Source of the DNA: Crocinitomicaceae bacterium | GTDB lineage: Bacteria; Patescibacteriota; Minisyncoccia; Phycocordibacterales; UBA1006 | Assembly (NCBI GenBank): GCA_047637555.1 | Contig: JBLIKX010000001.1 | Span: forward strand, 8,294-72,293 | DNA: 64,000 bases | Direction of reading: 5' to 3' | Program-made: the position numbers and the translations under genes | Shown: one piece after another, positions 15,746 to 48,240 of the stretch | Position numbering within the stretch: position 1 is the first letter of the stretch | How the letters are laid out: each line of letters begins with the position of its first letter | Notes under the pieces: generated by a model | Told to the model about the DNA's origin: nothing | Seen by the model: the letters and a program-made list of their open reading frames with translations, nothing else | Database searches by the model: none

Positions 15746-15804
15746 GTGTACAGTATAGGTAAAAAAATAATTTCGTCATCTTACAAAAAACTGATATAAA
15801 AAAT

Positions 15805-16185
15805 AAAGGATTTACCTTAATTAAACTACTCATTATTATTGTAATTATAGGTGTATTGGCAACTATCATAATTGGTTCGTCTGGTGATGTTTGTAATGAA
15901 GCTCTTGATTCAAAGGCAAAGACAAGACCCTCACAGACCCAAATTCAGGCTGAGCTATAATCATTTGATACAGGTTCCTATACAGAGCTTTATGATACAG
16001 ATACTCTTAGCTTTATGGTATTTCAAACTTTAGATAATGTTTGGGGCACACAAGATATTTCAAATACTAATGTCAGTGCAGGCGAGGACAATTTATAGTT
16101 CTCTGTATCACGAAGCCCTTCTAGTAAATAATACTACAGCAACACAGGAGTCAGCATTGCTTGCTGGACATGCTCATCCTGTTAA
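15805..16185 (+). pseudogene. decayed type IV pilin/pseudopilin gene
   Basis: Reads KGFTLIKLLIIIVIIGVLATIIIGS...KAKTRPSQTQIQAEL*SFDTGSY: a pilin N-terminal helix and ARD..IQ.ALELY..DNGSY-like box. No in-frame start codon upstream, Glu5 replaced by Lys, and in-frame stops at 15958, 16096 and 16129. Confidence 0.7.
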
Positions 16186-16208
16186 CAACGATGATAAAAA
16201 TTGTAATT

Positions 16209-16230
16209 AAAAACACCTCTAGGTGTTTTT
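16209..16230. terminator. bidirectional intrinsic terminator
   Basis: AAACACC-tcta-GGTGTTT hairpin with A/T flanks next to the def stop. Confidence 0.6.
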
Positions 16231-16747
16231 AATTTTCATTCAAGACATCATCAATCTCATCTTGGGTCATATCTCGTAATTTACGTGCCTTGTCTACAAA
16301 TAATATTCCATGTAAATGATCTGTTTCATGTTGAAAAATATGAGCTAATAGTTCGTCTGCCGATTCGGTAAATTTATTTCCATATTCATCATAGGCCTCA
16401 ATAGTAGCTTCTTTAGACCGTTCTACATCACCAACTTTCCAACGACAGGATAGACATCCTTCGCGCATCCACTTTTTTTTCTCAGATGTTTCAATGATTA
16501 CAGGGTTAATATATACCAAATGTTCTCCTTGTGGCTCTTCAAATATAAAAGGGGCAACGGTGAAAATTTGATATGATTCACCAATTTGTGGAGCCGCAAT
16601 AGCCACGCCGTCACTCTGAGTGGTGAGTGATTCATGTAAATCTGAAATAATAGATTGAATTTTTTCTGAGGTAATTTTTGTTGGATCGACATACTCAGCT
16701 TTTTGCCGAAGGACCTTTTTCCCCATCTGAATAATATCTCGTTTCAT
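16229..16747 (-). CDS. def: peptide deformylase
   Basis: GVAIAAPQIG, EGCLS and HETDHLHG motifs; start moved to MKRD (16747) because the track N-terminus MLFSSFNFTLRD is read from the tandem repeat. Confidence 0.85.
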   Translation of the reverse strand: MKRDIIQMGKKVLRQKAEYVDPTKITSEKIQSIISDLHESLTTQSDGVAIAAPQIGESYQIFTVAPFIFEEPQGEHLVYINPVIIETSEKKKWMREGCLSCRWKVGDVERSKEATIEAYDEYGNKFTESADELLAHIFQHETDHLHGILFVDKARKLRDMTQDEIDDVLNEN

Positions 16748-16765
16748 ATCTCTTAGAGTAAAATT

Positions 16766-16947
16766 AAATGAAGAAAAGAGCAATAGCGACTATTATGAAT
16801 TTATGCTGTGCGAAATGAAGAAAAGAGCAATAGCGACTATTATGAATTTATGCTGTGCGAAATGAAGAAAAGAGCAATAGCGACTATTATGAATTTATGC
16901 TGTGCGAAATGAAGAAAAGAGCAATAGCGACTATTATGAATTTATGC
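16766..16947. repeat. perfect 47-bp tandem repeat, 3.9 copies
   Basis: Units 16766-16812, 16813-16859, 16860-16906 identical; 41-nt partial unit 16907-16947; unit aaatgaagaaaagagcaatagcgactattatgaatttatgctgtgcg. Confidence 0.95.
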
Positions 16948-16971
16948 AAAATAAAAAACACTTTAAGCTAG
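16768..16971 (+). CDS. four tandem ATGA-coupled micro-ORFs (3x MKKRAIATIMNLCCAK, 1x MKKRAIATIMNLCKIKNTLS)
   Basis: ORFs 16768-16818, 16815-16865, 16862-16912, 16909-16971. Each TGA overlaps the next ATG. TAGAGT box 8 nt before the first ATG. Expression unproven. Confidence 0.3.
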
Positions 16972-16983
16972 GTTTAAAGTGTT
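16957..16983. terminator. bidirectional intrinsic terminator
   Basis: AACACTTTAA-gctagg-TTTAAAGTGTT stem with A/T runs; contains hisS stop and the last micro-ORF stop. Confidence 0.7.
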
Positions 16984-18269
16984 TTTAGATAATCAGAAAG
17001 TTCAGAGATCTTAATAATTTTTTGTTTCCGTGTGCTCATGTCACGAACAATTACGGTTCCATCCATCGCTTCTTTCTGACCAAAAATTAATGTATACGGA
17101 ATACCTAATGTCTCTGCGGTTCCTAATTGTGCCCCAAGAGTATTCTTTGATAAAGAATGCTTGATTGGATAGTGCTTTTTACGCATTATTTCAATAATAT
17201 CAAAAGCTTTGGCTTTGGCTTCATATCCTAGTTGAATAAAGAAGAATTTTGCTTTTTTCCTTATTTTGGGATTATAGGTTCCTTCTTTTGAAATTTCAAG
17301 AATACGGTCTACTCCAAGTCCAAGCCCTACAGCAGGCACATCTTTGTTGTGTCCCATTGATTTTGCCAGTCCATCATATCGTCCGCCTCCCCCTAGTGCA
17401 ATTGATTGATTGCCATCTTTATCTAATGTGACATATTCAAACACAGTGTGCGTGTAGTAATCTAACCCACGAACCAGAGCATGGTCTATTTCATAGGGAA
17501 TACCTGCAGCCTCTAGGTATTCAAGTACTGACTTAAAATGTTTTTTACTGACGATATTTAAATTATCAATAATAGTTGGAGCTTGCTCGTTAATTTTTTT
17601 AGTATCAGGCTCTTTTGAGTCAAGAACACGGAGTGGATTTGTGTCGAGTCGAGCGAGGTCTTTTTCACTGAGGTATTTTTTATTTTTTCTATAAAAAGCC
17701 TTAAGTATTTTAAGATATTCTTTACGAACCTCAGGATCACCCAAGGTATTTATTTTTACAATAATCTCAGCACCAGATTCTTTTATTATTTGATATCCTG
17801 TTTGTATGGTTATGGCATCTAGTACGGCTCTCTCTGAACCAATGATTTCAAGTCCAAACTGATAAAACTGTCGGTAACGCCCTTTTTGAGGTCTTTCATG
17901 TCTAAAGAATGGACCACCATAGTATAAAAATACTGGTTGTGGTTGGTTACCCATTCCATGTTCAATGTATGATCGCATAATACCTGCTGTGCCTTCTGGT
18001 CGCATTACAAGTTTACTTCCACCTTTAGTTTTCAAGCTATACATTTCTTTCTCTACTATGTCGGTATTATCTCCAACACCTTTAACAAAAATTTCTTCAT
18101 GCTCCAGGATTGGCAGTTCAGTCCCAGAAAATCCATAGTATTCAGCAATCTCTTGTGCTTTTTCATAAAAACCTTGTTTTTGATAGAAGGTATCACCTGA
18201 AAGATCTCGCATACCTTTTGGTGCTTGAAGAAGATCTTTTTTGTTTTTTGTTTTTTTGTTTGGAGTCAT
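16974..18269 (-). CDS. hisS: histidyl-tRNA synthetase
   Basis: 431 aa; class II motifs (MRPEGTAG, FRHERPQKGRYRQF, GGGGRYDGL) and anticodon-binding C-terminus. Confidence 0.9.
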   Translation of the reverse strand: MTPNKKTKNKKDLLQAPKGMRDLSGDTFYQKQGFYEKAQEIAEYYGFSGTELPILEHEEIFVKGVGDNTDIVEKEMYSLKTKGGSKLVMRPEGTAGIMRSYIEHGMGNQPQPVFLYYGGPFFRHERPQKGRYRQFYQFGLEIIGSERAVLDAITIQTGYQIIKESGAEIIVKINTLGDPEVRKEYLKILKAFYRKNKKYLSEKDLARLDTNPLRVLDSKEPDTKKINEQAPTIIDNLNIVSKKHFKSVLEYLEAAGIPYEIDHALVRGLDYYTHTVFEYVTLDKDGNQSIALGGGGRYDGLAKSMGHNKDVPAVGLGLGVDRILEISKEGTYNPKIRKKAKFFFIQLGYEAKAKAFDIIEIMRKKHYPIKHSLSKNTLGAQLGTAETLGIPYTLIFGQKEAMDGTVIVRDMSTRKQKIIKISELSDYLKTL

Positions 18270-44687: not shown

Positions 44688-44761
44688 AATTATTGTTTTA
44701 GGAATTTTCTCTGGTTATCCAGAAAAATTTATTGAAATAAATGAGCGCTAGTGAATATTAT

Positions 44762-44877
44762 TTACGGTATACTCTTGGTTATAGAACTGTACCTCGAGTG
44801 TATTTCGATTTTTACAGTCACTTTCGCTTTCTTAAAAATTATGCAATTCATAATAGTCGCTGAACTCCTTTATTCAT
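44762..44877 (-). CDS. micro-ORF pair homologous to the 47-bp array unit (MNKGVQRLL, then 29-aa MNCIIFKKAKVTVKIEIHSRYSSITKSIP)
   Basis: 17/17 identity to the array core plus extended similarity; ATGA junction at 44848-44851; internal AAGGAG; TATAGT 3 nt before first ATG. Confidence 0.25.
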
Positions 44878-45135
44878 CTAACTATAGCACGTTGACACAT
44901 TTTATGACTTTGTTAATGTGGTCGGAGATTAAAAGTAGTCACTAATTAAATAATTCAAAAATCATTTTTAAATGCACTTAAATTCAGTACGACCATCAAG
45001 CATTTTTCCAAGAGTTAACTATTTTAATAAACCTCGAAAAAAGTAAATATTTCTTCATAAAACAACAATACTTCTATTTTTTTTTGAGGTATTTTTTATT
45101 TCCTTATCATGCTAAATCTGCCATTATTTACAAAT

Positions 45136-45648
45136 ATGAATACATCAAAAGAAGTTACTCTTATCGAATTTTTATTTGTTATCTCAATTATTGGATTATT
45201 ATCCACCATTATTGTAGGCAGCTTGTGCGATGATCGAGCTTGAGATATTAAACAACTTGGAAGTATTAGAACAATTCAAATGGCATTAGAAATTTATAAT
45301 TTAGATAATGGTTTTTATCCCCCACATGCTGTTTAACTTGCGTTCAACCTAATTCATCTAAGGGTGCTTAGGTATAAAGTCCATATACTTCTTGGGAAAA
45401 TCTAAGTTTTGGACTAGGAATCACATTAGTTGTTGATATTATAAATTATGAAGGTTTGAGTACCACAATTGGAGATAGACTATATAATTATGATTATTTC
45501 AAATCTGTTCCTAGTTACCCAAAAGGTTCAGGATATTTTATTAAAGTTAAACTAAAATCAGATTTTTCCTGCAACTACTTTAGATCCTGAGGTTAAACCT
45601 TGTGATACGGGTACTAAATATTATTAGGGTTCTGGTATTACCATATGA
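45136..45648 (+). pseudogene. decayed type IV pilin/pseudopilin gene
   Basis: MNTSKEVTLIEFLFVISIIGLLSTIIVGSL..DRA*DIKQLGSIRTIQMALEIYNLDNGFYP, then pilin-like pieces in the other two frames (YNYDYF..GYFIKVKLKSD; LDPEVKPCDTGTKYY*GSG). Gly-1 lost; at least 5 stops and at least 2 frameshifts. Confidence 0.7.
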
Positions 45649-45713
45649 GCATCTCCTCTTTTACAAGTTCTCGTAGGGCTTTTTTGTTTTAATAAATTCG
45701 CTATAGTGTTTGT

Positions 45714-47744: not shown

Positions 47745-48240
47745 AAAACCAGTTATTAAGGTTTTTTATTTTAAATTCATATGAAATAAAAACATATTCT
47801 TTTTCGATGACACTGTATATTCCTAAAATACTAAAAAATATAATGATTCTTCATAACTACAAGTATCAAGTATTTTATAATTCTTATCTCTATACTAGGA
47901 GCAAAAAAAGTTCTTAGCTCTGGAACATTAAGACTCTTCACTATTAATATAAATGAAATTGTTGTTGTTCTTTGAACATAAATACAAAAAAATTCTAGAG
48001 CAAGAAAAATTTTTCAAACGGTTTTGGAATAAAAAAATCTTGTTTATATCTTTTTTCTTCTCCATACATCTATTTTTTTTATTTTAACTATTTTGAATTA
48101 CTGTAGTAAATGAATAAACGAGTGCAACGATTATAGTATTTTTTTTACTGAATTTTCTAGATCCTTATTGAAAATACCTAGAACATTTTTAGGTAGACTT
48201 TCCATATAAAACTTTCTGACTATAATGAAAGAATACTATT

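Follow-up and report, generated by a model that had tools for sequence, protein, structure and literature searches.

What is a perfect tandem repeat doing between hisS (histidyl-tRNA synthetase) and def (peptide deformylase) in a genome of the Patescibacteriota, and does it encode anything? The locus lies in a 64,000-nt stretch of contig JBLIKX010000001.1 (hereafter the window, to which all coordinates refer unless another locus is named). A preliminary description made from its letters had reported a perfect 47-bp x 3.9 array that decodes as four ATGA-coupled micro-open reading frames (ORFs) and resembles a self-contained transcription unit. Our analysis favours a different answer: the array is probably a young minisatellite, i.e. 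a variable-number tandem repeat (VNTR), of the first hairpin module (hairpin 1) of a dispersed, structured, non-coding family of Patescibacteria, together with a 6-nt linker.

The array was recovered with Tandem Repeats Finder at 16766-16947 of the plus strand (period 47, 3.9 copies, 100% matches, score 364), as the sole array with a period above 21 in the 64-kb window. It comprises four 41-nt cores (AAATGAAG...TTTATGC; 16766-16806, 16813-16853, 16860-16900 and 16907-16947), each corresponding to the hairpin-1 module, and three invariant 6-nt linkers (TGTGCG), for a total of 182 nt. The exact 41-mer occurs four times in the window at 47-nt spacing, against 0.00 occurrences expected from shuffles. 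Both approaches bear out the claim that the units are 100% identical, and the absence of TGTGCG from both flanks agrees with the earlier remark that the array is not a simple duplication of its 3' flank. The flanking genes are both encoded on the minus strand, with def at 16229-16747 (PF01327 on an identical product) and hisS at 16974-18269 (PF13393, PF00587 and PF03129, as well as homologues), and the array extends from the hisS terminator to a leaderless def promoter. On the def side, the minus strand reads AATTT-TACTCT-AAGAGAT-ATG. On the hisS side, the predicted intrinsic terminator hairpin (16953-16985, minus strand) has a 13-bp stem followed by TTTTTTATTTT and overlaps the hisS stop codon (16974-16976); it is predicted to fold on the plus strand too, with 15 bp followed by UUUUU. 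A generic scan for sigma-70 promoters and terminators gave no signal within the array, and it overlooked the hisS terminator because the stem holds fewer than three G-C pairs.

The unit is not confined to the array. When the remainder of the window was scanned for short words shared with the unit, an exact 17-mer of the core, AGCGACTATTATGAATT, came up at 44845-44861 of the minus strand, within a second copy of the element (44808-44882, minus strand) that shares similar flanks and scores 33.6 bits with a covariance model of the family, R1. This copy is about 82% identical to the core, with a local score matched by one of 150 shuffles. It carries a 1-nt deletion that breaks the peptide frame, has no clear hairpin 2, and is immediately preceded by a strong extended -10 box (TGCTATAGT), which scores 8.9 with a weight matrix derived from the window's own -10 boxes. 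Given this level of identity and the 1-nt indel, the 44.8-kb site was rejected as the direct donor of the core and regarded as a paralogue. A third, diverged copy with both hairpins (48105-48187, plus strand; R1 40.1 bits, E 1.6e-5) lies between uvrB and the next gene; an insertion interrupts its Box B, one of the two paired boxes of hairpin 1, and hairpin 2 is kept.

Beyond the window, the 17-mer matched 53 GTDB contigs, about 12 of which belong to Paceibacterota or Saccharibacteria, with several genomes matched twice; genomes of the candidate phyla radiation (CPR) are a small part of the collection scanned. Conserved flanks were found only around the Paceibacterota and Saccharibacteria hits, with the consensus uAAAUGA[NN]AAAsGAG(N2-4)AGCGACUAUU[N'N']GAAUUUa. 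The conserved stretch spans the 41-nt core in full; as a rule, a hairpin of about 40 nt and variable sequence comes next. An nhmmer profile retrieved further diverged copies, among them the one at 48105-48187 of the window, and scored the array units at 39.5-40.3 bits (E about 1e-10).

The stem of hairpin 1 is built from Box A (uAAAUGAnnAAA) and Box B (UAUUnnGAAUUUa), which pair on either side of a tandem G.A, and the apical sGAGCGuAGCGACU is conserved. The consensus computed with RNAalifold consists of 5 bp, tandem G.A/A.G, 4 bp and a conserved apex with a 2-bp mini-stem, followed by a hairpin 2 of 12 bp with a 2-nt bulge. The variable dinucleotides of the two boxes (NN and N'N') change together, as AU/AU, GC/GC, AG/CU and AC/GU, and double changes were observed in 14 of the 23 consensus pairs. 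In the MAFFT alignment, 91.8% of cells pair compared with 76% in shuffles, and none of 500 shuffles reached the observed value on any measure; controls with slid partners gave three to five covarying pairs, and a model-based alignment of 24 members agrees on the covariation. The structured strand is the sense strand of the element, which for the array is the plus strand of the window, because G-U pairs outnumber A-C pairs (26 vs 9). With R1, CPR loci scored 37-101 bits and the array units, in which hairpin 1 is present as in other members of the family, 30-39 bits (E 2e-5 to 1.6e-3). Only one weak match (E 0.07) came from 296 kb of non-CPR loci with the same 17-mer. Two orthologous copies, in loci L035 and L070, whose flanking proteins are about 70% identical, retain 34 of 37 identical positions in hairpin 1 within a spacer that is otherwise unalignable, and their hairpins 2 differ by compensatory changes. 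This pattern indicates purifying selection rather than mere recent spread.

These features bear directly on the coding reading. The micro-ORFs exist as had been described, with three identical ones (MKKRAIATIMNLCCAK; 16768-16818, 16815-16865 and 16862-16912, plus strand), whose TGA each time overlaps the next ATG, and a terminal one (MKKRAIATIMNLCKIKNTLS; 16909-16971) that stops 2 nt short of the hisS stop codon. The first ATG (16768) is likewise preceded at 8 nt by TAGAGT (16754-16759). From this arrangement, a dosage-amplified, Cys-containing peptide of 16-20 residues, translated from a leaderless mRNA, had been proposed. The ATGA coupling is automatic, however, because 47 = 3x16-1, so that a frame starting at one ATGA reaches the TGA of the next unit after 16 codons. 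Beyond the period, the coupling needs just an ATGA, of which 0.31 are expected per 47 nt of the window, and 15 codons free of stops, and 49% of the window's ATGs are followed by at least 16 open codons; a -10-like box lies 4-10 nt upstream of 13.7% of all ATGs. All of these features are frequent by chance. Shine-Dalgarno sequences are absent from the micro-ORFs, gene callers placed no gene within the array in five contigs, and the peptides, including MKKRAIATIMNLC, had no match in Pfam. Among the homologues, a frame M(N/K)K(G/R)(A/V)xATI(M/L)N(L) is open in members with a 4-nt spacer between the boxes, but its length ranges between 2 and 4 nt, and in about half of the members either it is 2-3 nt or stops are encountered after 3-5 codons (L035, L039a, L047a/b, L054b and L070a). 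Indels and early stops thus break the frame, and what is kept instead are base pairs that covary (AU/AU, GC/GC, AG/CU and AC/GU), which coding leaves unexplained. Accordingly, we consider a coding role very improbable and the four micro-ORFs by-products of the 47-nt period. As a caution of wider use, perfect repeats whose period is not a multiple of three yield 'coupled' ORFs by arithmetic alone.

When the array arrived can be judged from relatives. Nine loci with HisS 73-83% or Def 64-65% identical to the products of the window were compared; among the closest HisS relatives (79-83%), those named are Candidatus Pacebacteria, and the organism itself is a CPR bacterium with kinship to Paceibacteria. 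The array was found in none of the nine. In eight of them (including L011, L012, L014, L015/L016, L017 and L018), the hisS-def spacer is only 36-63 nt long and consists of the terminator hairpin and T-run, at the same place in all eight, plus a leaderless def promoter; the ninth (L076) has a reverse-strand gene between hisS and def. A search of metagenome contigs with Def returned only three distant relatives, none with the core, and R1 detected no element in 77 kb of syntenic hisS-def DNA from relatives. The junction reads GTGTTTTTT(N)TTTTACACT in the relatives and GTGTTTTTTATTTT(array+AATTT)TACTCT in the window. With the block removed, the window becomes GTGTTTTTTATTTTACTCTAAGAGATATG, which is collinear with, for example, L018 (GTGTTTTTTCTTTTACACTAGAGTTATG), and AAAAT borders the inserted block on both sides. 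By this comparison, the block is a lineage-specific insertion between the hisS T-run and the def -10 box.

The insertion site raises the question of how def is transcribed. In the relatives, the def promoter consists of TTGCAT, TTGCAA or TTGGTA, a 16-17-nt spacer, TACACT, and 6 nt to the ATG. In L018, L011 and L015, the hairpin that terminates hisS contains the -35 hexamer in its loop or 3' arm, and the -10 box abuts the T-run, such that terminator and promoter overlap inside 36-52 nt. For the window, a leaderless def promoter is predicted at 16755-16783 (minus strand), with -10 box TACTCT (16755-16760), a 17-nt spacer, and -35 box TTGCTC (16778-16783) within the def-proximal core; the ATG (16745-16747) follows 7 nt downstream of the -10 box. 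TTGCTC, on the strand opposite to the element, is the only TTG-type hexamer at the proper distance (17 nt) from TACTCT, and the def-proximal core would hence provide the -35 box of def. The hexamer is present only because the array variant reads GAGCAAT, the closest family variant (L036) having GAGCGAT. The leaderless arrangement is common in the window, with a TAnnnT box 6-10 nt before the ATG (mode 6) in 26 of 58 long ORFs (e.g. gene starts at 973, 4999, 7907, 9206, 9254 and 61200), mostly after TGn or GGn, without a Shine-Dalgarno sequence and with just a weak TTG as -35.

Such a position could make the array a tunable regulator of def, in the manner of phase-variable promoters, through its repeated TTGCTC or through T-rich UGCUCUUUU tracts in read-through hisS transcripts. 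The array does lie directly upstream of the def -10 box, its def-proximal unit occupies the conserved -35 position, and its copy number varies among the assemblies. Expansion nevertheless leaves the -35/-10 spacing unaffected, and copy-number change is therefore probably near-neutral for def. None of the TTGCTC copies further upstream is paired with a -10 box 16-18 nt away, and minus-strand RNA shows no excess structure (z = -0.62). On that strand, every unit (16778-16792 in the def-proximal one) reads UUGCUCUUUUCUUCA, in which UGCUCUUU matches the core of boxA, the antitermination motif of rrn and lambda; this boxA-like string is not kept in the family consensus and is probably a coincidence. 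Tuning of def through the copy number of the array therefore appears improbable to us.

Whether the repeat and its copy number are genuine was assessed with independent assemblies. Exact HisS and Def proteins retrieved six Joint Genome Institute (JGI) contigs from six other samples, all with the array and with flanks that match the window at 99.9-100% identity. L001, L003 and L004 have a hisS-def spacer of 179 nt (three cores) and L002/L009 and L010 one of 226 nt (four cores, as in the window), while L006 contains four cores and 33 nt of a fifth (at least 4.8) before the contig ends inside the array. Furthermore, three Logan contigs (k=31) end after exactly 30 nt of the first core, the pattern that a repeat boundary should leave. 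In nine data sets or more, then, the repeat is real. The GTDB genomes contained no match to an exact 24-mer from the core, so the species representative is not in that collection. An assembly artefact, by which the assembler would have inflated a single core or some other true number, could draw on the loops that a perfect 47-nt period makes in de Bruijn graphs, on the L006 contig ending within the array and on the differing copy numbers. It would, however, have to produce at least three cores in six independent sample assemblies, and the three-core array (135 nt) should be spannable by 150-nt reads or k=127 and assemble unambiguously, the loop in the graph being expected at 182 nt. The Logan unitigs of the three further runs, moreover, branch exactly at the core boundary, which requires at least two copies. 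We regard an artefact as the least probable of the explanations considered. One candidate function listed in the preliminary description, a very recent slippage expansion, is instead supported, because the copies are identical, their number differs among contigs nearly identical elsewhere (3, 4 and at least 4.8), and the array is missing from the relatives.

The family at large offers a clue to what the amplified module may do. Its members often start at the stop codon of a co-oriented upstream gene and otherwise lie in promoter regions, i.e. as a rule in untranslated regions. These positions, together with the sequence-conserved hairpin 1 and the structure-conserved hairpin 2, suggest an RNA-level module for protein binding, stability or processing. 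Complete elements stand in direct, diverged tandem, two or three times at a spacing of about 110-125 nt, in L070 (2621-2827) and L020 (7323-7576), and the family therefore tends to multiply locally. No consistent -10 box was found at a fixed distance from the family members, but a -10-like box lies just upstream of those in L041, L042 and L072 and of the 44.8-kb copy in the window. L041 (7521-7760) and L042 (4110-4352, reverse), from one Pacebacteria metagenome-assembled genome (MAG), contain paralogous units of about 210-250 nt, each of which combines a TAGAAT box with hairpin 1, a G+C-rich stretch and a terminator of its own; the L042 unit has a 41-nt insertion. They may represent genes for small RNAs or an extended version of the element.

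By analogy, the array might itself be a small non-coding RNA gene of about 220 nt, transcribed from about 7 nt past TAGAGT, at the first array base, to the bidirectional hisS terminator, and presenting three to five copies of the conserved hairpin, for instance as a multivalent binder or sponge of the factor that recognizes hairpin 1. The TAGAGT box (16754-16759, plus strand) lies 6 nt before the array at a proper spacing, and TCTTAGAGT scores 4.4 with the window's -10 matrix, in the top 0.6% of window 9-mers. The plus strand is the structured strand of the family, and the hairpin and U-run downstream fold on it. Full elements in tandem (L070 and L020) and members preceded by a -10-like box, in two of which (L041 and L042) a terminator follows some 200 nt on, complete the case. 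Weighed against this, real promoters score 2.7-10.8 on the same matrix (median 8.7), which leaves TCTTAGAGT in the low tail, and the box lacks both a TG extension and a -35 element. A promoter-like site at a constant distance is lacking in most of the family, and the units are mismatched in the covarying helix. The whole-array RNA folds no better than shuffles on either strand (z = -1.65 for plus and -0.62 for minus). In the array context, the linker GCG is predicted to be able to lengthen the stem by pairing with the UGC of AUGC. Finally, the array is found in none of the relatives, so any function would have to be lineage-specific and very recent. A small-RNA gene is thus a tentative proposal that we hold to be unlikely. 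The same low standing applies to its bolder version, in which the two-hairpin element would represent an undescribed functional RNA class of Paceibacteria and Saccharibacteria, with hairpin 1 binding a protein or ligand and hairpin 2 conserved in structure only, and the array an expressed three- to five-mer sponge whose dose follows copy number. Of the self-contained transcription unit initially proposed, what stands is the -10-like box on the 5' side and the two-way hairpin on the 3' side, without the coupled coding ORFs. The box does overlap the def TACTCT, as had been pointed out, but is not its exact reverse complement, which is AGAGTA (16755-16760), offset by 1 nt.

We therefore return to the minisatellite. 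The block sits between the hisS T-tract and the def -10 box in this lineage alone. Its hairpin-1 module would have multiplied through slipped-strand mispairing, or through unequal recombination of identical cores with one another, and the micro-ORFs would be a consequence of the period and not a selected feature. Several observations weigh against this account or limit it. A single simple duplication is insufficient because the linker TGTGCG fits neither flank, and either a first event with filler or the import of a ready-made array must be assumed. The core has one G.A mismatch in the covarying helix (dinucleotide AG/AU), and the internal units are without hairpin 2, as TGTGCG and the next unit follow, so they may not behave like full members of the family; after the terminal unit comes the hisS terminator, already present in relatives that lack the array. 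The -35 role of the def-proximal core is deduced from spacing and from the relatives only, and the def -10 box scores poorly (1.2) with the window's own matrix. Moreover, the copy numbers all come from short-read assemblies, and a perfect repeat of 182 nt exceeds common k-mer and read lengths, so the difference between three and four copies could partly be due to the assembler.

As to what the element is, the window had no match to Rfam 15 at the gathering threshold, and none was found at the element positions with E up to 1-10. The literature yielded no description of such a CPR element, which is weak evidence of novelty given the incomplete coverage. The element is not phage-borne, because a blastn search of phage records gave no match and viral contigs gave a single chance match inside a coding region. 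A number of candidate features were considered by eye and dropped for want of consistent support, namely kissing of the Shine-Dalgarno-like loop AAAGGAG with the UUUCCU loop of hairpin 2; a K-turn or box C/D; a hammerhead core; ops/JUMPstart; promoters of the SigH, extracytoplasmic-function (ECF) and sigma-54 types; a dif site; ARG boxes; integron attC; and IS200/IS605 ends.

Among known systems, the closest in layout are the mycobacterial interspersed repetitive units (MIRU-VNTR), which are tandem 40-100-bp intergenic units at several loci, with filled and empty sites and border direct repeats, and which hold small ORFs with overlapping stops and starts (PMC3184786). The array similarly has a 47-bp unit, a core found at three loci in 64 kb, an empty site in relatives, and AAAAT on both sides. 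In MIRU, the ORFs share the strand of the flanking genes, with whose stop and start codons they overlap within a polycistron. The ORFs of the array run opposite to hisS and def alike, the minus strand of its unit has one open frame and no ATG, and the array is bordered by a terminator on one side and a promoter on the other. The two are unrelated in sequence, and the element family is kept across classes of the phylum with a covariation-supported fold. The pneumococcal BOX elements are modular, dispersed and intergenic (boxA-boxB(n)-boxC), with a module of about 45 bp in variable tandem number. The array shares with them the presence of one module of a dispersed intergenic repeat in tandem copies of apparently variable number, but it has no sequence similarity, amplifies the 5' module only and was seen at a single locus. 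In common with repetitive extragenic palindromes (REP), bacterial interspersed mosaic elements (BIME) and repeats resembling miniature inverted-repeat transposable elements (MITE), the family consists of small intergenic hairpins, often just after stop codons and sometimes clustered; it differs in that no associated transposase was seen and in that hairpin 1 keeps its sequence between remote genomes and at orthologous positions, an uncommon trait among selfish repeats.

Arrays of the tandem interspaced guide RNA (TIGR) type contain two variable spacers of 8-12 nt per unit and adjoin a gene for the Nop-domain protein Tas (PMC12045711). The array resembles them in being a series of short, structured units of a CPR bacterium in which weak UGA motifs recall box C/D, but was rejected as one of them, since its units are all identical, without variable spacers, and no Nop domain (Tas) is among the Pfam families within about 5 kb. 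A CRISPR array was discarded as well, given an invariant 6-nt linker instead of unique spacers and an Rfam CRISPR-DR34 match at chance level (E 3.4). ToxI of type III toxin-antitoxin systems consists of perfectly repeated tandem units, each about 36-47 nt long, which a promoter precedes and a terminator follows. The array is alike in perfection and unit size, and in the -10-like box before it and the terminator hairpin after it; the gene downstream, however, is the antisense hisS instead of a same-strand toxin gene, and PADLOC assigned no family to the six neighbouring proteins, such that this assignment was likewise rejected.

Some further observations concern the surroundings of the element copies. 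The neighbours of the array are hisS, def, fmt and lepB, and the Pfam families of the genes within about 5 kb are DUF192, S26, HisS, Def, Fmt, YgjV, glutaredoxin, YjdM, PPIase, S30AE and TruB. Between def and fmt, a 483-nt gap (15746-16228) lacks a convincing ORF; the same interval measures about 40 nt in most relatives and holds a DoxX gene on the opposite strand in L014. The gap is not a remnant of that gene, as tblastn with the L014 DoxX protein found nothing. The 44.8-kb copy lies within about 1 kb (44690-45710) without a long ORF, in which a 44-residue ORF (45109-45243, plus strand) with a type IV pilin-like N-terminus (KEVTLIEFLFVISIIGLLSTII) looks truncated. The genes recR, dnaB and rplU, near several family members elsewhere, are not in this window. 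In L058 (7224-7345 and downstream), an element copy plus about 60 nt is enclosed by 17-nt direct repeats (GGAGAGGTGGCAGAGCG) that correspond to the 5' end of the adjacent tRNA gene, which suggests insertion or duplication at the tRNA gene. Matches to the T-box leader below its gathering score of 93 were recorded in L072 (7427-7594; 56.7 bits), between the element and an aminoacyl-tRNA synthetase gene, and in L041 (2834-3012, minus strand; 44.7 bits). The full element in L031, labelled as a MAG of Patiriisocius sp., has CPR-like neighbours (pth and lepB), and this may be a CPR contig binned into a MAG of Flavobacteriia.

In itself, the array is thus an ordinary intergenic minisatellite, and the family from which it derives is apparently undescribed and well supported. 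The locus would provide a strain-level variable-number marker for an uncultured Paceibacterota population, and it illustrates that the insertion of a repeat can rewire a tight junction of terminator and promoter where mRNAs are leaderless. CPR bacteria have small genomes and a reduced ribosome and RNA-processing machinery and, to our knowledge, very few non-coding RNAs or structured repeats are known from them. The element family described here, of about 80 nt, with strong covariation support, not in Rfam 15, and conserved in distant CPR genomes and at orthologous sites, offers in its multi-copy hairpin a concrete handle for seeking a binding partner in these bacteria.

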